Part shown: one piece after another, positions 3,413 to 56,728 of the stretch
Layout of the letters: each line of letters begins with the position of its first letter
How positions within the stretch are numbered: position 1 is the stretch's first letter
Origin: a phage
DNA length: 64,000 bases
Reading direction: 5' to 3' (one strand)
Sequence record: PZ229304.1
Program-made: the position numbers and the translations under genes
Notes under the pieces: generated by a model
What the model saw: the letters and a program-made list of their open reading frames with translations, nothing else
What the model was told of the DNA's origin: nothing
Databases searched by the model: none

Positions 3413-6187
3413 TTAGTTTACCAGTTTATTTATATCTGGTAAAAGATTTATTTCACCTAAAAAATCACCTTCACCTTCCTCTAACCAACTCTCATATGCT
3501 TGTGCATGATTATAGTTACCATCAAAAGAATCTGCAACAAATTTTTCTACAGTTTTTCGAGATGTGTCAGCGCCAAATACACCAAGTTTAATACCATTGA
3601 TCGGTAAAGTGGTACTTGTTGGTACTTTCTCTGTTGCAACACGGTTGATATCTATAATCTCCTGTACGGTTGTGTTCCATTGTAAGCATTTAACACAACG
3701 GGTATGCGCTACATACAGTAGGTTTCGCTCTGCCTCTTCCAGTCCTACCCATTCACCAGTCTTTTTATCATAGTTGGAAGGAAAATCATTAGCAACAATA
3801 ACCTGATCCCACTCCAAACCTTTAGACTTGTGTGCTGTAGTCAGTGTGACTTTTGCTGTAGGAGAATTTCTATGCGTTCTAAGTGTATGTGCTATAGTGT
3901 TTGCCTTACCAGAAACTACGATGTTTAACAAGCGTTTAGCATCTGGATCAGCCTCTGCACACTCAACAAATTCATTCCAGTCTGCGTAAGGTAATACAGT
4001 TTCATGTTTTACTTTCTCAATATCTCCTCTCCGAAGAGCATTAACACTATCTACCATAGAGATAAAATCCCTGGTATCTACGTTAATAATAATTTCTTCC
4101 CCATCTGCAATACGATCCATTGCCTCCATAAGCAAGGTTAAATTCTTGCGAAAGATGATAGTGTAAGGTTTTGTATAGTCTACAACATCTGATTTGTAGC
4201 TACCTACTACAGTATCAAAGCCTTTACCAACCAAAGGGTGACGCAAAGGTTCTTTATCGCTTAAAATCATATTGGCAATGTTTGCCACTTTGGGGCCAAA
4301 ACGGAAGCAAGCAGTTAATGGAAGCTCTGCTCCATACTTAGCTGTTTCAATCATCATATTAGAGCTACCTCTAAATTGATAAATGCAGTTGTGGCTAAGA
4401 ATTTCATTACCAAAGAAGTTAGCAGTATCCTCTACTTCAATATCATAATAGATACCTTCACTATCTACAATGTCCACAATTTCTTCTGCCGTTACAGTAT
4501 CACCATCTTTTACCAACACAGACATGCCTTTAAACAAACCCGCCGCCGGAATTAAAGTATATTTGGCGGTGTTCACAGAGGACATGCATTCTTTTAAAGA
4601 TGCAAACGGCACTATTTCAAGGATCTTTTGTGCAAAACTCAATGCTTCACGATAAGAATTGAAATATTTACGTACACGGTAACGACCTTCCAACTTAGCA
4701 ACACTTACGCTTACACCTGCTTCAATGAGTGAAGCATAGATTGACATTTCACTTTCTGTCCACTCAAAACTAACTTGTGTTCCTTTACAACCTTGTGCTC
4801 GCAAAGTCACTGTTAACATTTTTCTTTCATCTACTGCACAATTGATGCTGTGCCAATGTGGATAAGCAAAATGATAATCTTTATCCTCTAAAAGTTTAAA
4901 ACCGTTTTGTCCGAATTGTTCAAAAATGTTATTGATCCTTTCTTGATTAATGCCGCGTGAACTTGCTTCAAATACACAAGTAGGAATGCCATATTGTAAA
5001 CTGTATGCCATTTCTTTTTCCATAGCAGCTTCACGGTTTTCAACAATATCCAACACCCATAATTTCTGTGCTTTTTCAGAACGTGTACGTTGCCCCAGTT
5101 TAGAAAAACCTTCTTTATCATCGAATTTGTTAGTGATCCCTACTCGGAAACCTAAATCTTTCCTCCACATTAGGTATACCACCATCTGATCATCTTTCAG
5201 AACATAGGATGAAGCCCAAATACGATGGTTATGTGTCATATCTAAAGTTTTACCTGTGGCAGTAATAATATTCCTACCTTTTGTACGTGTAGATAAAGTC
5301 TTATTTGTTACTTTTCTAAATGTAATTTTACCATTAGAATAAGACTCTACCTTATCACCGATTTGTAGGTCTTTCATTGTAACCTGACCATTCTCGGTAT
5401 TAAGTACCGTGTTTTCCGACACACATTGGAATTCATCGCCCACTACCACAATTTGTTTTGCAGATTTAGCATTTCGCAGAATAGACAAGAATGCAGGGTT
5501 AACATCCTGGAATTCATCACCAAAAATAATGTCATAACCAAGGTCAGCACCTGATAATTCAAACAATTTTACATAGGTGTCATGCGTCATCAAAGTATCT
5601 GTGTTAGGATCGATGCGCTCTCGCCACAATTGTTTTGCATACTTAACTACTTCTGTAATTAGTTTGTGTTCGTTAATACCTTTTCTTTTAATATCTGCAA
5701 GATGTACACTAGGAAAATGTTTACGGCTGATAAAAGGATCATCCGAAAATTCAAACTTACCTACGGTTTGCTTGATCATTAAACCAATCATAGCACGAGT
5801 TAACAGTGTTTTCCCTCGTTTATCAATAAGATTATTAATCTTAAATTTCTTTGCTATCTCGCTACCTGTACCTGCAACGTTAACATACTGTCCTTCTGGT
5901 CGTGACAGTTTTGCACGTAAACGATGATCCAGGAATTGATAGCAAATAGAATGCAATGTACGGCATTCTACATTTAGTGGCATCTTACGTCGTGCTTCTT
6001 CTGCCATGCTTTTATTGAAAGCTAAGTAAAGAATGCGATCTTCTGTACTGTTAGCCAGCAAATAAAGTGTTGACGTTTTGCCTGATCCAGATTTAGCTTG
6101 GATAGTTAAAAAGCGATGGTCTGGAAAAGCCTCCTTAATAGCTGTTTGCTCTTCTGTTGGAGTGAAGCTCAACTCTTTCTTAGCCAT
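3413..6187 (-). CDS. UvrD/PcrA-like SF1 DNA helicase interrupted by an in-frame intein
   Basis: Walker A (AKSGSGKTST), motif II (GDEFQDVNP), motif III split as GDEFQ / C-IYQFRGS, motif V (TAHKSKGLEWDQVIV), motif VI (LLYVAHTRC). Start trimmed from TTG at 6226 to ATG at 6187 with RBS. Confidence 0.8.
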   Translation of the reverse strand: MAKKELSFTPTEEQTAIKEAFPDHRFLTIQAKSGSGKTSTLYLLANSTEDRILYLAFNKSMAEEARRKMPLNVECRTLHSICYQFLDHRLRAKLSRPEGQYVNVAGTGSEIAKKFKINNLIDKRGKTLLTRAMIGLMIKQTVGKFEFSDDPFISRKHFPSVHLADIKRKGINEHKLITEVVKYAKQLWRERIDPNTDTLMTHDTYVKLFELSGADLGYDIIFGDEFQDVNPAFLSILRNAKSAKQIVVVGDEFQCVSENTVLNTENGQVTMKDLQIGDKVESYSNGKITFRKVTNKTLSTRTKGRNIITATGKTLDMTHNHRIWASSYVLKDDQMVVYLMWRKDLGFRVGITNKFDDKEGFSKLGQRTRSEKAQKLWVLDIVENREAAMEKEMAYSLQYGIPTCVFEASSRGINQERINNIFEQFGQNGFKLLEDKDYHFAYPHWHSINCAVDERKMLTVTLRAQGCKGTQVSFEWTESEMSIYASLIEAGVSVSVAKLEGRYRVRKYFNSYREALSFAQKILEIVPFASLKECMSSVNTAKYTLIPAAGLFKGMSVLVKDGDTVTAEEIVDIVDSEGIYYDIEVEDTANFFGNEILSHNCIYQFRGSSNMMIETAKYGAELPLTACFRFGPKVANIANMILSDKEPLRHPLVGKGFDTVVGSYKSDVVDYTKPYTIIFRKNLTLLMEAMDRIADGEEIIINVDTRDFISMVDSVNALRRGDIEKVKHETVLPYADWNEFVECAEADPDAKRLLNIVVSGKANTIAHTLRTHRNSPTAKVTLTTAHKSKGLEWDQVIVANDFPSNYDKKTGEWVGLEEAERNLLYVAHTRCVKCLQWNTTVQEIIDINRVATEKVPTSTTLPINGIKLGVFGADTSRKTVEKFVADSFDGNYNHAQAYESWLEEGEGDFLGEINLLPDINKLVN
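4388..5425 (-). mobile_element. intein (346 aa) inside helicase motif III; central domain may be a homing endonuclease of unidentified type
   Basis: N-terminal Cys (codon aca at 5423-5425 on plus, TGT on minus), block B-like TxxH (MTHNH), C-terminal YDIEVEDTANFFGNEILSHN followed by +1 Cys (4385-4387); removing it restores the canonical motif III GDEFQ-CIYQFRG. Confidence 0.7.
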
Positions 6188-6188
6188 T

Positions 6189-6665
6189 TCAACCTCTCTT
6201 AATTTGTTTAACAAGCATAGGAACAAAGTCTCGTTTTAAAATTTGTTCAATAATATGATCAGGTAGCTGTTGGAAATTATAATTAAAAGCTACTGTCTCA
6301 CCTTTAGGTGTTTCTACCCGCACATATAACATGTTACGAAGTTTATCCACTTGTGCTGTATATTCTAAACCATGTAATTGATGCATTGCAAACATCAAAT
6401 CATCAGTTTCAGTTTGGAATCTATCCCTTCCCTGCATCAAGGACAAGGAAAAAGGTAGATTTTCCCTAAGAGCCACCTTCTTAGGCACTAGTGAAGGGAA
6501 ATACTCCCCAATAACTGCCTGTGTAAGCTGAATACACTCTTTTTCAAGCTGGTTTTGTTCCTTGAGTTCACAAACACTCTTTTGTAAAGTGTTAACCTCT
6601 TTTTGCAAAGCTGCTAGTTGAGCACTTAACTTTCTTTTTTGATTACGACCAAAACGTTTAGACAT
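6189..6665 (-). CDS. hypothetical protein
   Basis: 158-aa track ORF, ATG start. Confidence 0.45.
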   Translation of the reverse strand: MSKRFGRNQKRKLSAQLAALQKEVNTLQKSVCELKEQNQLEKECIQLTQAVIGEYFPSLVPKKVALRENLPFSLSLMQGRDRFQTETDDLMFAMHQLHGLEYTAQVDKLRNMLYVRVETPKGETVAFNYNFQQLPDHIIEQILKRDFVPMLVKQIKRG

Positions 6666-13806: not shown

Positions 13807-14934
13807 ATGAAATACACGATTTATGGTGATATTGTAAGTGTAAATAAAGATATGGGCGTGGAATCTAACTATCTTCCACCTGGATTCTATACTGTTAGTC
13901 GTGATCCCCTTGGCAATTACTTTTTAAGCCGTGGTAATCTAACAGGTGTACCGGATGTTCTGTATGGTGAAACAGAAAAACGAGCAAATCACGTTATTCG
14001 TACATTCCATCGCCGGAGTGCACAAGGTAAAAATACAGGCTTGCTTCTGACAGGAACTAAGGGCAGTGGTAAAACTATGTTAGCCAAACTCATTAGTCGT
14101 GACCTTGTAGAAGAAGGTATTCCAACTATTATGGTTACTCAAGCCTACAGTGATGCTAATTTCATTGAACTTATTAGTAAGATCACCGACAAAGCAGTGA
14201 TTATTTTTGACGAATTTGATAAAGTATATGAGAAGAAACAAGATCAAGAAGCACTTCTCACTTTGTTAGATGGTACTGGCAGTGGTAATAAACTGTTTAT
14301 TCTAACTAAAAACAGTGGCTTTATCTCTGAATTCTTTCTAAATCGTCCTAGTCGTGTGTTTTATAATTTTAATTATGATAAAATCTCACTAGAAACTATG
14401 ATTGACTATTTAGATAAAAACCTGGATAACAAAGCACACTTGGATAATTTCCAAAGGCTTTGGGATGTAAGTTTAGAGTTGTCCTTTGATGTGATCCAAG
14501 GTATAGTAGAAGAACTTAATTTCTACCCTGATTTATCCTTTAAAGAATGCATCTCTATGATGGGCGTTTCTTTGGGTGGTGGTAATAAGTGGGATATCAG
14601 CAGCGTTGTTATTAATGGGAAACTTCAGAAAGTTAGCTGGGTATCTAGTTGGCATAACTTCACACCTGCAATCTTTTTAGGTGGCTCGTGCACACTAGAC
14701 GTGTACTTGTCATCTCCAAGTGATGCAGACTCTAAAGAAGCCCTTGCTAATAGCTCTTACGTGGTTTTTGATGATGAAGGAGATGCTCGAATTCCATTGA
14801 ATGCGACAAAAATGAAAGCAGATCTTATTACAGGCGGTAAAATCGTTGTGTTTAGTGATGATCCAGAAGATTCTTTCCGTATTGTTCTGGAACCAACTAT
14901 CACCAATGGTGCAACTTTGGCAAGTGTGTTTTAA
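13807..14934 (+). CDS. AAA+-type ATPase with uncharacterised C-terminal domain
   Basis: Walker A GTKGSGKTMLAKL and Walker B VIIFDEFDK. Confidence 0.6.
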   Translation: MKYTIYGDIVSVNKDMGVESNYLPPGFYTVSRDPLGNYFLSRGNLTGVPDVLYGETEKRANHVIRTFHRRSAQGKNTGLLLTGTKGSGKTMLAKLISRDLVEEGIPTIMVTQAYSDANFIELISKITDKAVIIFDEFDKVYEKKQDQEALLTLLDGTGSGNKLFILTKNSGFISEFFLNRPSRVFYNFNYDKISLETMIDYLDKNLDNKAHLDNFQRLWDVSLELSFDVIQGIVEELNFYPDLSFKECISMMGVSLGGGNKWDISSVVINGKLQKVSWVSSWHNFTPAIFLGGSCTLDVYLSSPSDADSKEALANSSYVVFDDEGDARIPLNATKMKADLITGGKIVVFSDDPEDSFRIVLEPTITNGATLASVF

Positions 14935-50529: not shown

Positions 50530-50569
50530 ATCTCCTCCTAATAACCCCCTCGCGGGGGTTTATACTAGA

Positions 50570-51223
50570 TTAATTATCAGAGGACACTTTATCAAGTTTT
50601 TCAGAGACTGTCAATACTTTTTCTTGTGATTCTTTCATTTCTGCTAAAATACTTTCAGCTTCATCACTATCAGGATCACCAGTCAACAGCATACTAATTA
50701 GTTGCTCCTTGCTGAAGTTCAGAATATCTTCCGCTGTTAACTCCAGTTGTTCTTCGATCTCTTCGATAAAAGTTTCACCGCCTGAAAAAGCATCTCGCAG
50801 TTTTGCAACTTCCATCGCTTCTTCTGGAGTTGCCCCTGCATCTAAAGCTGCTAAAGCAAAATCTGCCCCACTACCAACAGCATAATAATCTTCAGTTAAA
50901 GGATATGCTCGCGTTGGATTATTACCCTCGTGCATATAAATTTTACCGTCTGGGTGAACAACCAATGCCACAAACTCTTCATCTTCTTTATCAGGATCGG
51001 ACTGGATCACCAAACCTGGGATTGTCTCTTGTGCTGCTTGGCATTGTAAGTTTTGTTCGAACCAAGAAAAGAAAGTCAGGATAGAAGACAGACGTCCTGC
51101 ACCACCAACAAGGTAGTCCCCAATTTTACGCACTTTCTTGAAATTTAAAGTGTCTACACGACTACCTACTGTTACTTTACCGTCAGACAGAATTTTGTTA
51201 CGTGTTGCAATAATTGTTGTCAT
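50570..51223 (-). CDS. HslV-like Ntn-hydrolase peptidase with acidic C-terminal extension
   Basis: MTTIIATRN (Thr right after initiator Met), KKVRKIGDYLVGGAG, AVGSGADFALAALDAG parallel HslV TTIVSVRR, KKVRR, AIGSGG.YA. Confidence 0.5.
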   Translation of the reverse strand: MTTIIATRNKILSDGKVTVGSRVDTLNFKKVRKIGDYLVGGAGRLSSILTFFSWFEQNLQCQAAQETIPGLVIQSDPDKEDEEFVALVVHPDGKIYMHEGNNPTRAYPLTEDYYAVGSGADFALAALDAGATPEEAMEVAKLRDAFSGGETFIEEIEEQLELTAEDILNFSKEQLISMLLTGDPDSDEAESILAEMKESQEKVLTVSEKLDKVSSDN

Positions 51224-51714
51224 TGTACTTCCTCCTGTAGTGTTTTAAGGACTGCTTTACCACCGCTTACATATTTACGGAGGTAATCAATAGCTCTTAG
51301 TGTTTCTTTATCCACAAGAATTTTATTAGTTCTTGTTAGTGGATGATTTAGTAAATCACTGCAATTTCTTACTAACATAGATTTCTTGTGAAAAATACTG
51401 CTAAGAAAAAGAAGTTTAGAATCTTCTTCATCAATCAGGAGTAATTCTGAATTAGACCCAGCTACATTTATTATACACTCAAACAAGCCTTCTTGACTAT
51501 CAGATAATTCCTGGTAATATTTAGTTAGCCAATCCTCGCCTTTTAACCAACTAAAAAACATCTGAACTTTTTGCAAAGTTGTCATGTTCTCTAAACGAAG
51601 AGATATTTCTTTTTCAATCTTGTCAATATAAATCTGTCTAAACTCATTCGGCTTAACTAAGCCAGCTTGATAGCATTCATCAATACCATTGCGATCAATC
51701 TCAATTAGCGTCAT
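51220..51714 (-). CDS. hypothetical protein
   Basis: 164-aa track ORF. Confidence 0.45.
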   Translation of the reverse strand: MTLIEIDRNGIDECYQAGLVKPNEFRQIYIDKIEKEISLRLENMTTLQKVQMFFSWLKGEDWLTKYYQELSDSQEGLFECIINVAGSNSELLLIDEEDSKLLFLSSIFHKKSMLVRNCSDLLNHPLTRTNKILVDKETLRAIDYLRKYVSGGKAVLKTLQEEVQ

Positions 51715-51750
51715 TTAACCTCCATAACAGGCATCCTTGCCTTGTAATTA

Positions 51751-52503
51751 TTAGTATACTTCCGTGATGAACTGAGACAAACGGGAACGTTGGTTATCAG
51801 CAGTTGTCATTTCAACATAACCAATAAAATCCACAATAGCTTCCCTTTCTCCTTCTTCATTAATAGGAACAACACGATCTAACAAATCACCTAACCCGTT
51901 AGCTCTTCGTTTAATTGCATATGTTTGATTAACATCGCCCATAATGACAATACGTGTATTAAGACCTGCTCGCTCAAGGAGAAGTTTTACTGTATTTGGT
52001 GACATAAGTTGAACTTCATCAATAAGAATAATGCTGTTATCCCACGTAGCACCTAGTGCATAGTTTGGAATATTAAGTTCAATTTTGCCACTTGCAATAT
52101 CGTTTTCCAATTTATTTGCAGTCATAAACTGTTGGAAAATTCTTTTAGTTGATTCGTAGTGTGCTGCTAGTTTATCAGTCTTATCTCCAGATAAGAAACC
52201 AATTTGATCATCACCTACTTCTGTCGGGTTTTTAAGGAAAATCAACTTTCTGAAATCACCAGCTTTAAGCATTTGCAATGCTTTCCACAGTGCTGTTGTC
52301 GTTTTTCCTGTTCCTGCTGGGGCATTAACAATGGTTAAATCATTCCAAACCATGCTTCTTACAATAGCTTCTTGATTCCCAACAGGGGTAAATTCATCAA
52401 GACGGTAATCATCATTTCCTACTGCTTTAGCCGCATAACGACTGGCACGTTTGTCATCATTGGCTGCTGATTGACGACGAGCCTTTGCGGTTTTATTTCC
52501 CAT
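51751..52503 (-). CDS. phoH: PhoH-like ATPase
   Basis: Walker A NAPAGTGKTTTA, Walker B IILIDEVQ, PhoH-like length. Confidence 0.8.
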   Translation of the reverse strand: MGNKTAKARRQSAANDDKRASRYAAKAVGNDDYRLDEFTPVGNQEAIVRSMVWNDLTIVNAPAGTGKTTTALWKALQMLKAGDFRKLIFLKNPTEVGDDQIGFLSGDKTDKLAAHYESTKRIFQQFMTANKLENDIASGKIELNIPNYALGATWDNSIILIDEVQLMSPNTVKLLLERAGLNTRIVIMGDVNQTYAIKRRANGLGDLLDRVVPINEEGEREAIVDFIGYVEMTTADNQRSRLSQFITEVY

Positions 52504-52515
52504 GTTTGCACTCCT

Positions 52516-52540
52516 TATAAAAGGGGCTTTCGCCCCTTTG
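52516..52540 (-). terminator. intrinsic terminator
   Basis: AGGGGCTTTCGCCCCT hairpin with T-run on the minus strand. Confidence 0.55.
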
Positions 52541-53202: not shown

Positions 53203-53469
53203 TTACTCCGCAATCTGAGCCATGAATTCACGTAGTTCAGAAAAACCTCCTACGTGGGTTAGCTGTTCACCATCTTCCACAAAAATCTGAGGAAATGTGC
53301 GTGGTAGAACACCTGTTTTCTCTAAAACCAGATTCTGAATCTGATCTAAAGAATAGTCTTCATCTAAGGTAAGGTATTTAAAATCCTGTTCACGCTGTTC
53401 TAGTAGAATCTTAGCGTTAGTGCAGAAAGGACAATTTGGTTTACCGTAGATAATAAAATTCATTTTCAC
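53203..53469 (-). CDS. glutaredoxin-like protein
   Basis: CPFC active-site motif near the N-terminus, 88 aa, positioned with the RNR genes. Confidence 0.7.
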   Translation of the reverse strand: MKMNFIIYGKPNCPFCTNAKILLEQREQDFKYLTLDEDYSLDQIQNLVLEKTGVLPRTFPQIFVEDGEQLTHVGGFSELREFMAQIAE

Positions 53470-54296
53470 TCCTTGTTTAAAAGTATAGTTAAAGTTCTTA
53501 CAATACCGCTATCAACACTTCGCGGATTTAAAGTAGGATCTGTTTTTAAATAAGATGTTGCTGGTCTGACTGCTTTGGAATTATAGGTTGAAGCAGATAC
53601 AGGATTAACTGTAACAGACAAATCTATAACAAGAAATATCTTTCGTGCAAAATCATACCAAGAAATATAATCTGCACCTGCATAGTGTACAATTTTACTA
53701 TTTACACCATCTTTTACAAGTTTAAAAATTGTTTCTGCAAGATCAGGTGCATAAGTAGGACATGATAAATGATCACATACTACATTAAATTCTTTTTGAC
53801 CACCGTTGTAGCGTTCCAACATAGTTTTCAAAAAGTTATGTCCAAATTCACTATAAACAGAAGCTGTTCTGATAATAAGTGCTGTAGGACAAACTGCTTG
53901 TACTAAAGTTTCACCTAATTGTTTACTGTAACCGTAGGTGTTCAAGGGGTTTGTTTTACTCTCTTCTGTGCCAGCAACATGTCCATCAAAAACATAGTCT
54001 GTTGAAATATGTACAAACTGTATCAGTAAATCATTACATGCTTTGGCAATGTTTGTTGCACCGTATGCATTAACATTTATACAGGTGTTAACATCTTCTT
54101 CAGCTTTATCTACTGCCGTGTAAGCCGCACAATTCACAACAACATCAGGCACGTGCTGTACAAGACTATTCATAACATCTTTAAAGTTGGTAATGTCTAT
54201 ATCACTTGCTTCAATCAAAATAACATCTTCGGGCGCAACTTTTGCCAAAGACTGTCCTAATTGACCTTTTGAACCAAAGACTAAAAATTTTGTCAA
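53466..54296 (-). CDS. rmlD: dTDP-4-dehydrorhamnose reductase
   Basis: GSKGQLG, PDVVVNCAAYTAVDKAE, HISTDYVFDG, YGYSK motifs. Confidence 0.75.
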   Translation of the reverse strand: MTKFLVFGSKGQLGQSLAKVAPEDVILIEASDIDITNFKDVMNSLVQHVPDVVVNCAAYTAVDKAEEDVNTCINVNAYGATNIAKACNDLLIQFVHISTDYVFDGHVAGTEESKTNPLNTYGYSKQLGETLVQAVCPTALIIRTASVYSEFGHNFLKTMLERYNGGQKEFNVVCDHLSCPTYAPDLAETIFKLVKDGVNSKIVHYAGADYISWYDFARKIFLVIDLSVTVNPVSASTYNSKAVRPATSYLKTDPTLNPRSVDSGIVRTLTILLNKE

Positions 54297-54847
54297 AATA
54301 TGATCTCCTTTAGTGTTTTGGCTTGCTGATCTTTTTGTGACAAGATAGGTTTAAAATTAATATCATTAAAGATTAAATCAAAACCCCAATCTATATTGAT
54401 ATCTGGATCATTCCACGCAAGACTACACTCTGAAGTCGGATCGTAATATTCTGTACATTTATATTCAAAATCAGCAATGTCGCTAATCACAACAAAACCA
54501 TGAGCGAAACCAGGAGGAATCCAAAATTGTGTTTTATTCTTTTCAGATAAAAGAACACCTACCCATTCTCCAAATGTTGGACTACCAACCCTAATATCTA
54601 CAGCAACATCATAAACTTCACCACGAACACAACGTACTAACTTCCCTTGTGGGTTTTTCTTTTGAAAATGAAGCCCACGTAGAACTCCTCGAATAGAACG
54701 TGAGTGGTTATCCTGGACAAAGTTTTGTTTACCTATGTATTGATCATATAAAGCCTGATTAAAACTTTCTAAGAAAAAGCCACGTTCATCTCCGTAAACG
54801 TCAGGTTGAATGATCAACAAATCTTCGATTTTTGTTGCTTGAATCAT
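54293..54847 (-). CDS. rmlC: dTDP-4-dehydrorhamnose 3,5-epimerase
   Basis: YGDERGFF, VLRGLHFQ, KLVRCVRGEVYDVAVDIRVGSPTFGEW, IPPGFAHGF. Confidence 0.8.
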   Translation of the reverse strand: MIQATKIEDLLIIQPDVYGDERGFFLESFNQALYDQYIGKQNFVQDNHSRSIRGVLRGLHFQKKNPQGKLVRCVRGEVYDVAVDIRVGSPTFGEWVGVLLSEKNKTQFWIPPGFAHGFVVISDIADFEYKCTEYYDPTSECSLAWNDPDINIDWGFDLIFNDINFKPILSQKDQQAKTLKEIIF

Positions 54848-54860
54848 TTAATTCCCCCTT

Positions 54861-55730
54861 TTATTTTAATTTAAGTAAATACTTACCGTAGTCTGTTTTA
54901 CTTAAAACCTCTCCAGAACTTTTTACAGAGTCTAAAGTAATCCATTCATTTTTAAAAGCAATCTCTTCCAGGCATGCAACCTTCATACCTTGTTGCTTTT
55001 CTATTGCATGAACAAATTGAGATGCTTCCATAAGACTTTCATGTGTTCCTGTATCCAGCCAAGTGAAACCTCTTCCTAGTTTACAGACACGTAAAGTCTT
55101 TTCTTTCCAGTACATCTCATTTATATCTGTAATCTCTAACTCCCCTCTAGCAGAAGGTTTAACGCTCTTAGCTTTCTGTATAACAGAATTATCGTAAAAG
55201 TACAAGCCTGTGATTGCGTAGTTGCTTTTTGGTGCTTTTGGTTTTTCTTCAATACTCACCACTGTACCTTCAGAATCAAACTCAACAACACCAAATCTTT
55301 CAGGATCATTTACGTGATACCCAAAAATATTAGCTCCACCATTCTTTTCAATATATTCTTTAGCAGAATCTAAAATGCTACCAAAACTCTGACCAAAGAA
55401 TAAATTATCACCTAGCACAAGTGCTACAGAATCTTCACCAATAAAGTTCTCACCAATAATAAATGCTTCTGCTAAACCTTTTGGGCTATCCTGTATTGCA
55501 TACTGTAGGGAAATACCAAAAGAAGAGCCATCACCTAGAAGATTTACAAAATTAATTTGATCTTCTGGTGTTGTAATTATTAGTATTTCCCTAATTCCAG
55601 AAAGCATTAGGACAGAGAGTGGATAATAAATCATAGGTTTATCGTAAATTGGTAATAGTTGTTTACTAACCCCTTTAGTAACTGGGTAAAGTCTTGTTCC
55701 ACTACCACCTGCTAAGATAATACCTTTCAT
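54861..55730 (-). CDS. rmlA: glucose-1-phosphate thymidylyltransferase
   Basis: [35 protein letters not shown] signature. Confidence 0.85.
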
Positions 55731-55738
55731 ACTCCTCC

Positions 55739-56728
55739 TTAAACTTTATTTTCCCACCACTCTTTGTTATCTACATACCAATCAATGGTTGAATAAAGTT
55801 TTTCTTCAAATGTGCCTTTAGCTTTCCACCCTAATTCCTTTTCAATCTTATAAGGATTCACTTCATATCTTAAATCATGCCCAGGCCTATCTGTAACCAT
55901 CTCAATGAGGCTACAAGCATCTGTTTCAGATGGATATACCGCATCCATATAATCACAAATCATATAGATTACATCAATATTAGTTCTAGGGTTTCTGCTC
56001 CCAATATTATATGTCTCTCCAGATTTGCCTTTAGTTACTACTAGGTGTAATGCCTCTGCGTGATCGTCAACGTATAACCAGTCTCTTACTTGAAGACCAT
56101 TACCATAAACAGGGATTGGTTTATGCATTAAGATATTTGTTATCGTTTTAGGTATTAGTTTTTCTGGATGATGATATGCTCCAAAATTATTTGAACAATT
56201 TGTTATAACTGTCGGAATACCATAAGTACGATGCCACGCTCTTACCAAATGATCGCTTGCAGCTTTAGATGCAGCATATGGACTACTTGGTTTATAAGGA
56301 TTCTGTTCTGTAAACGGATAATCTCCTTCTTCCAGATCACCATATACTTCATCTGTTGAAATATGATGGAACATTTTAAGATTTGATTTATCTCCCATTA
56401 AACGAACAGCTTCTAGAAGATTAAATGTCCCAACAATATTTGAATTTATAAAAACACTCGGTGATGCTATTGAATTATCTACGTGACTCTCTGCTGCAAG
56501 ATGCATTATATAATCTGGATTAACATCTGCCACAATCTTAGCAGTTAACTGCGCATTTGTCAAGTCAACACGACAAAACTTTACATTAGGTGTTTCTGAT
56601 AAATTCCTAGGGTCTGAAGCGTAACCCCATTTATCTATAACGTAAATATCATTCTTAGTATTTTTAGCTAGGAAACGAACTACCGCACTTCCAATAAAGC
56701 CTAAACCACCTGTTACTAAGTATTTCAT
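55739..56728 (-). CDS. rmlB: dTDP-glucose 4,6-dehydratase
   Basis: [10 protein letters not shown]-terminus and SDR-extended YxxxK (YAASKAASD). Confidence 0.85.

Follow-up and report, generated by a model that had tools for sequence, protein, structure and literature searches.

A predicted proteasome-type threonine hydrolase with a conserved acidic C-terminal module in a phi92-like Escherichia coli phage

Results

Locus and transcription unit

The gene described here lies in a 64,000-nucleotide stretch of phage DNA (sequence record PZ229304.1), which we refer to as the window. It is the equivalent of gp058 of Escherichia phage phi92 and is called gp058 below. The surrounding 4 kb are 99% identical to phi92 and to ~55 other Justusliebigvirus genomes (subfamily Stephanstirmvirinae), and sequence comparison places gp058 in a phi92-like E. 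coli myovirus. The finding of the gene is not new, since public phage records already annotate it: gp058 is 99 to 100% identical to genes labeled either “peptidase HslV family,” as in the phi92 record, which adds the note “putative 20S proteasome,” or “putative proteasome component,” as in the records of the BASEL phages. Annotation and literature already cover the gene itself, its assignment to this family, and the lack of an HslU.

The features of the locus are collected in Table 1. The order of genes on the minus strand is RNR, dTDP-rhamnose genes, thioredoxin-like protein, lysozyme, PhoH, gp059, gp058, gp057, DNA methylase, and invertase. The gp058 and gp059 reading frames overlap, and the phi92 record has a ribosome-binding site annotated at the position equivalent to the one found here within the end of gp059. 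The structural model of gp059 is confident and all-alpha, with no informative structural relatives. A search of gp057, gp058, and gp059 against a library of defense systems gave zero matches.

The gp059-gp058 pair is bracketed by hairpins at 51729..51742 and 50545..50558, the latter of which is unique in the window and has a predicted RNA folding energy of -16.1 kcal/mol (z = -2.3). Few U residues follow this second hairpin, and its appearance suggests an element for RNA stability or attenuation rather than a strong terminator. Together with a third one farther upstream, these GC-rich spacer hairpins split the minus-strand run into lysozyme, PhoH, gp059-gp058, and gp057 onward.

Some of this arrangement extends to more distant phages. 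The order lysozyme-PhoH-gp059-like-protease is kept in metagenomic relatives whose protease is 43 to 53% identical to gp058, and PhoH lies <3 kb from the protease in most loci. In the Vibrio and Aeromonas phages, gp059 went undetected even by HMM searches at maximum sensitivity, and a search of 10.4 kb surrounding the protease of Vibrio phage 1.121.O detected no PhoH. We considered PhoH as a functional link to the protease and set it aside, given its apparent absence near the protease of that Vibrio phage and given that shared backbone synteny would also explain the proximity. A four-gene dTDP-rhamnose set (rmlA/B/C/D-like) sits just upstream of the lysozyme-PhoH-protease block, and in relatives (L002 and L003) the dTDP-rhamnose genes are shuffled around the protease.

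Table 1. Positions of gp058, its parts, and other features of the window
Feature	Position	Strand	Description	Basis
940-aa Walker A ORF	3413..6235	-	940 aa	
Classic-AAA (PF00004) ATPase	13807..14931	+	375 aa; PHROG 2376; Walker A GTKGSGKT	
Stem-loop	50545..50558	-	CCCCC-GCGA-GGGGG (GNRA loop); in the 40-nt spacer 3' of the gp058 stop	terminator-like scan
gp058, proteasome-like Ntn (N-terminal Thr) hydrolase CDS, phi92 gp058 equivalent	50570..51223	-	217 aa + stop	ORF list
gp058 C-terminal extension	50573..50761	-	residues 155-217; acidic linker, short helices 164-169 and 172-181, long terminal helix 188-215	AF2
gp058 conserved tail motif	50678..50740	-	residues 162-182, LTAEDILNFSKEQLISMLLTG; consensus LTxEExxxM(S/T)KEELLxxLFG	
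gp058 catalytic core	50762..51223	-	residues 1-154; beta-sandwich and helices H1 (45-67), H3 (120-128), H4 (133-143)	AF2
gp058 core key residues	within 50762..51223	-	T2, D14, K30, G40-G41-A42-G43, G117-S118-G119, R143-D144-x-x-S147-G148-G149	
gp058 acidic loop	50972..51022	-	residues 68-84, IPGLVIQSDPDKEDEEF, net charge -5; site of helix H2 in HslV/proteasome, “pore loop” position	DSSP, charge
gp059	51220..51714	-	164 aa, all-alpha; stop overlaps gp058 start (ATGA)	
Ribosome-binding site	51231..51236	-	AGGAGG; 8 nt 5' of the gp058 ATG, within the gp059 end	upstream sequence
GC-rich spacer hairpin	51729..51742			
PhoH, Walker A ORF	51751..52503	-		
GC-rich spacer hairpin	52520..52539			
dTDP-rhamnose genes	53466..56728	-	four genes, rmlA/B/C/D-like	

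Family assignment and catalytic residues

The translated reading frame begins MTTIIATRNK, i.e., Met-Thr-Thr, and contains a GGAG block from residue 40 and a GSG block from residue 117. This agrees with an initial annotation, made from the DNA alone, that had described an HslV-like Ntn-hydrolase peptidase with a Thr following the initiator Met and with HslV-like GGAG and GSG blocks. The peptidase assignment held at the superfamily level in every profile and fold search, and no search returned a non-peptidase family. The match to PHROG 1040 (“peptidase HslV family”) has an E value of 1.3e-61, and the Pfam family PF00227 (Proteasome) is passed marginally, with 25.1 bits against a gathering score of 22.4; 45 of 56 gp058 relatives match PF00227 as well, at E values down to 4.9e-11. 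HslV gave the best matches in a sequence search of the PDB (E of 5e-8 to 4e-5, over residues 1 to 131). A chance open reading frame is excluded by these PHROG, Pfam, and PDB matches.

Structure prediction, which the initial annotation had proposed as a check, pointed the same way. The AlphaFold2 (AF2) model, calculated for the monomer from a 55-sequence alignment, has a mean pLDDT of 90.8 and shows the alpha-beta-beta-alpha sandwich fold of proteasome subunits. Foldseek matched it with a probability of 1.0 to HslV, BPH, and 20S beta subunits, and 959 PDB chains were found at E <= 0.001.

The residues that make up the proteasome active site, namely, Thr1, Asp17, Lys33, the oxyanion Gly, Ser129, Asp166, and Ser169 (PMC8665760), have counterparts in gp058. 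Alignment to HslV and yeast beta5 equates T2, D14, K30, S118, D144, and S147 with proteasome Thr1, Asp17, Lys33, Ser129, Asp166, and Ser169, respectively. The GSG and RDxxSGG blocks align with yeast beta5 in a fragment alignment that is not significant alone but agrees with the full-length matches, which are. Among 56 relatives with identities as low as 29%, T2, K30, G43, G117, G119, and G149 are invariant, and M1, T3, D14, S118, D144, S147, and G148 reach at least 90% conservation; G41, like G43, is among the catalytic-set positions that are invariant or conserved at that level. A Thr at residue 2 is also a substrate context for methionine aminopeptidase. On these grounds we consider it very likely that gp058 belongs to the proteasome/HslV Ntn-hydrolase superfamily and is, as predicted from its residues, catalytically competent; it is apparently an active proteasome-type threonine protease. 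Such conservation is no proof of proteolysis, because BPH and Anbu also keep the catalytic residues and, to our knowledge, no physiological substrate is known for either. Literature searches for gp058 and PPH-type homologs turned up annotation-level mentions only and no published assay.

A compact core without helix H2

The initial annotation called the protein HslV-like, a description that stands for the superfamily and fails at the level of HslV itself. The scores of gp058 against the two NCBIfam HslV equivalog models fall far below the cutoffs, with 34 bits against 137 for NF003964 and 31.6 bits against 157.75 for TIGR03692. The core superimposes on HslV in Foldseek with TM scores of 0.66 to 0.69 at 22 to 26% identity. 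DSSP analysis of the AF2 model found no helix between residues 68 and 84, so that the H1/H2 helix pair is incomplete, with H1 present and H2 missing, and the H2 segment of HslV aligns onto the acidic loop that gp058 has there instead.

An exhaustive profile search separated the relatives into tiers. The first comprises 57 cluster representatives at E<1e-30, 165 to 350 aa long, nearly all of which align through most of the C-terminal tail. The second is large, made up mostly of proteins of 137 to 155 aa with E values of 1e-19 to 1e-26, and aligns to profile positions 1 to ~151 only. These compact relatives keep the MTT start, D14, K30, G43, and G-S-G, lack H2, and end just past the last core strand; by these proteins as well as by the AF2 model, the core finishes at about residue 154. 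They are 30 to 39% identical to the gp058 core, compared with only 25 to 28% for a third group of ~180 aa in which H2 is kept. A library of viral structures contains compact proteins of Caulobacter phages, 131 and 146 aa long, whose fit to the gp058 core (TM scores of 0.90 and 0.83, respectively) is better than that of any HslV. Since the compact forms both match and fit the core better than HslV does, we assign the core to the PPH type and regard the tail as an addition.

Fuchs, Alva, and Lupas (2021) described 22 new proteasome homologs, for which they found no co-occurring AAA+ partner (PMC8665760). Among these, PPH has ~140 residues and occurs in tailed phages and their hosts, as “the first true viral member,” and RPC, which is related to PPH, has a C-terminal extension and is restricted to proteobacteria; both lack H2 (PMC8665760). 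Our comparison with PPH and RPC relies on these published descriptions rather than on the authors' cluster map. Like PPH, gp058 is phage-borne and compact in its core, where H2 is absent; it also shares the lack of a propeptide beyond Met, the Thr1/Asp17/Lys33 triad with the oxyanion Gly, and the absence of a co-occurring AAA+ gene. It differs in its length of 217 aa, with 63 extra C-terminal residues that carry a conserved motif, against ~140 aa and no addition in PPH, and in its long H1 (residues 45 to 67) followed by a 17-residue acidic loop. RPC resembles gp058 in combining a PPH-like H2-less core with a C-terminal addition that has no match among known structures, but it has been reported only from proteobacterial genomes, and not from phages, whereas the gp058 family is found in lytic phage genomes. 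The RPC label therefore fits by description and not by distribution.

HslV (ClpQ) shares with gp058 the Thr after Met, a GxxGG-type loop, the GSG block, and the alpha-beta-beta-alpha fold; gp058 is unlike it in lacking H2, in having the C-terminal tail, in an RDxxSGG block that is proteasome-beta-like, and in the lack of an accompanying HslU gene. In place of the RDxxSGG block, HslV presumably has a different segment. BPH from Thiobacillus denitrificans (PDB 5OVS/5OVT), a group-I homolog, has no known unfoldase and, like gp058, carries an acidic loop at the pore-loop position; it also has H2 and no C-terminal module, and it is only 18% identical, with a TM score of ~0.5. With the equivalog thresholds failed, H2 missing, and a compact core of the PPH type, gp058 is HslV-like at the superfamily level only and is not an HslV ortholog.

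The acidic C-terminal tail

Beyond the core, gp058 has the acidic C-terminal extension noted in the initial annotation as ~60 residues long and absent from bacterial HslV. Both points hold, and the extension is absent from the compact phage forms as well. The tail comprises 63 aa with 18 D/E and 5 K/R residues (net charge -13, 29% acidic, pI 4.05) and is modeled with pLDDT values of 73 to 89. Its conserved motif can be followed through 56 relatives to identities as low as 29%, and L175 within it hardly varies. The tails of the 56 long-form relatives all carry a net negative charge (median, -16). Across this family, an acidic linker is followed by the conserved two-helix motif and then by a variable part; the shortest of these tails, at 31 to 33 aa, consist of linker and motif only. 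A profile of the motif searched against the PDB gave nothing significant, with hits at chance level only, such as a segment of RpoB (per-domain E of 3.3). From its conservation and the AF2 model, the tail appears to be a structured helical module, and more than an acidic stretch.

Many long-form relatives carry additional and differing C-terminal modules past the tail motif (P0061, P0063, P0065, P0069, P0071, P0073, P0077, P0078, and P0081, among others). One of these modules is Trp-rich, with the pattern “WxxNTGxQPV...W+L,” and another, “L+xLAxxLxIxFAHNIGxxKLxxRI,” resembles HeH/Rho_N/SAP motifs. An HeH/SAP identity was not adopted, as the Pfam matches amount to single weak ones to Rho_N and Ish1 (E of ~0.006 to 0.009). 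The HeH/Rho_N-like modules occur in the long relatives and not in gp058.

Candidate unfoldase partners

The window contains three Walker A open reading frames of at least 150 aa. These are PhoH, a 940-aa protein, and a 375-aa classic-AAA ATPase of PHROG 2376 with a weak p97/Cdc48-like signature, which has a 39% identical paralog elsewhere in the genome, outside the window. The initial annotation had reported no HslU-like partner in the window; this is correct for partners of the HslU/ClpX type, as far as the scanned frames (PhoH and the classic-AAA ATPase) go, but the classic-AAA ATPase had been overlooked. Annotation of the complete genome of the relative Nernie includes no HslU, ClpX, or ClpY, and HslV without HslU has been noted for other phages also (PMC7823757).

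We considered the two classic-AAA paralogs as specific partners of gp058 and rejected them on distributional grounds, as they are spread far more broadly than the protease and in a pattern that does not match it. PHROG 2376 is found in 380 phage records, many of them from Enterococcus, Bacillus, Staphylococcus, and Lactococcus phages with no protease homolog. Co-distribution therefore gives no grounds for a dedicated partnership. Large myoviruses commonly carry the family, those of Firmicutes among them, and in some records its members are labeled “FtsH-like protease.”

Distribution and a natural deletion

Homologs of gp058 were found by tblastn in 167 phage records. These comprise 56 phi92-like genomes (at least 95% identity), 78 records of phAPEC8-like and Klebsiella phages (60 to 80%), and 33 of Vibrio, Aeromonas, and Shewanella phages (<60%). 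Two phage records, MG065645 (Campylobacter phage A145) and MG065650 (B15), are labeled as Campylobacter jejuni phages and match E. coli Stephanstirmvirinae phages, A145 at 99% and B15 as phAPEC8-like; their host labels look doubtful. A pattern-based scan of 185,579 species, with one genome each, which sees close relatives only, yielded one hit, a 425-bp contig that carries a close relative of gp058. This contig (JAPMLR010000072.1; L012), assigned to Lysobacteraceae bacterium JHOS43, is 76% identical over residues 68 to 188 and is probably phage contamination of the assembly.

One phage isolated on E. coli, the species exemplar VEcB (NC_052663; L011), lacks 1,121 bp equivalent to approximately 51039-52159 of the window, and the two sides of the junction overlap by 9 bp. 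Through this deletion, residues 1 to 114 of PhoH are joined in frame to residues 63 to 217 of the protease, and all of gp059 is lost along with protease residues 1 to 62, which include the Thr, Asp, Lys, and GGAG positions. Because VEcB lacks the catalytic N terminus, gp058 appears to be dispensable for growth in culture. Unless the deletion is an assembly artifact, PhoH, gp059, and the protease all appear to be dispensable for propagation, and, if real, it speaks for the conditions of isolation only. The protease gene is kept in essentially all of the ~134 other Stephanstirmvirinae-type records, and this retention, taken with the loss in VEcB, fits an accessory fitness function.

Discussion

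The observations on fold, catalytic residues, tail, and genomic context make it probable that gp058 is an H2-less, PPH-type phage threonine hydrolase with a family-specific C-terminal module and no dedicated AAA+ partner. It would be co-transcribed and translationally coupled with gp059, inside a block of genes for nucleotide metabolism and host takeover. Host methionine aminopeptidase would then cut off Met1, leaving the Thr as the N-terminal nucleophile, and hydrolysis would be carried out by the network of T2, D14, and K30 with S118, D144, and S147, an activity suggested by the conservation of these residues. As its relatives do, gp058 probably assembles into rings, and a dedicated AAA+ unfoldase is probably not needed for its action, nor, probably, is host HslU; for independence of HslU and ring assembly taken together, we would put the chances at about even. 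Substrates would be peptides, unfolded proteins, or one particular target. Most likely the tail projects outward from the catalytic body and has a part in recruitment, tethering, or regulation; we infer such a role in part from the modular variability of the tail among relatives. The whole would represent an accessory function, conserved across the subfamily and dispensable for plaque growth.

A different arrangement, in which gp058 replaces HslV and docks on host HslU to give a hybrid phage-host ATP-dependent protease of altered specificity, seems unlikely to us. It draws on the facts that HslV provides the best solved sequence and fold matches, that the phage encodes no HslU of its own, and that the E. 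coli hosts possess HslU. Set against this are the 31.6 to 34 bits reached with the HslV equivalogs, compared to cutoffs of 137 to 158, and the 22 to 26% identity to HslV. In the model, moreover, H2, which is half of the H1/H2 layer, is replaced by the acidic loop, and the fit of compact relatives to the core is far superior to that of HslV. Phages of Vibrio, Aeromonas, Shewanella, and Klebsiella also carry members of the gp058 family, and Fuchs et al. saw no co-occurrence of such homologs with AAA+ proteins (PMC8665760).

It is quite unlikely, too, that gp058 is a non-degradative Ntn enzyme, such as a site-specific processing enzyme, an amidase, or a connectase-like transpeptidase/ligase to which the tail gives specificity. 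The proteasome-like family does include the specific ligase connectase and many members without a demonstrated protease function, and the conserved tail motif and the varied add-on modules of relatives suggest targeting over bulk degradation. However, gp058 shows no connectase hallmarks, since H1 is present and an S3/S4 insertion is missing; all of the proteasome-type catalytic network is retained, and nothing points to a ligase substrate.

A more speculative extension, and in our view a long shot, is that the tail is a cis-acting substitute for the AAA+ regulator in recruitment or gating, making gp058 a self-sufficient, ATP-independent “viral mini-proteasome.” Its targets could be specific host proteins, e.g., basic nucleic-acid-binding or defense proteins caught by a nucleic-acid-mimicking tail, and in relatives with HeH/Rho_N-like modules the enzyme could be tethered to nucleic acid.

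The strongly acidic tail in 56 of 56 relatives might also suggest a catalytically irrelevant binder or decoy, for instance, a DNA-mimicking or HslU-titrating acidic protein that obstructs some host factor and uses the fold as a scaffold, and acidic phage proteins are often mimics or inhibitors. We consider this very improbable, as M-T-T and every catalytic position are strictly conserved down to 29% identity, which would not be expected of a mere scaffold. That gp058, as a phage-encoded peptidase, might be the prohead (capsid maturation) protease is improbable in the extreme, given that known prohead proteases differ in fold, that the gene lies among RNR, PhoH, lysozyme, and methylase genes >35 kb from the portal/major-head module, and that VEcB was isolated and propagated without the catalytic N terminus.

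Read as a PPH-type hydrolase with an added C-terminal module, gp058 adds no new kind of system. Proteasome homologs are widespread in phages: ~48 viral structure clusters match the proteasome-type fold, and a profile search returned 8,308 cluster representatives at E<1e-3, a figure that counts in cellular HslV and other proteasome-family proteins. Within this family gp058 is a convenient entry point, since it comes from an easily grown group of E. coli phages (phi92 and the BASEL phages), has a confident structural model, and is accompanied by the natural deletion strain VEcB. It may thus serve as a tractable model for the role of a phage proteasome-type protease that operates without an unfoldase.
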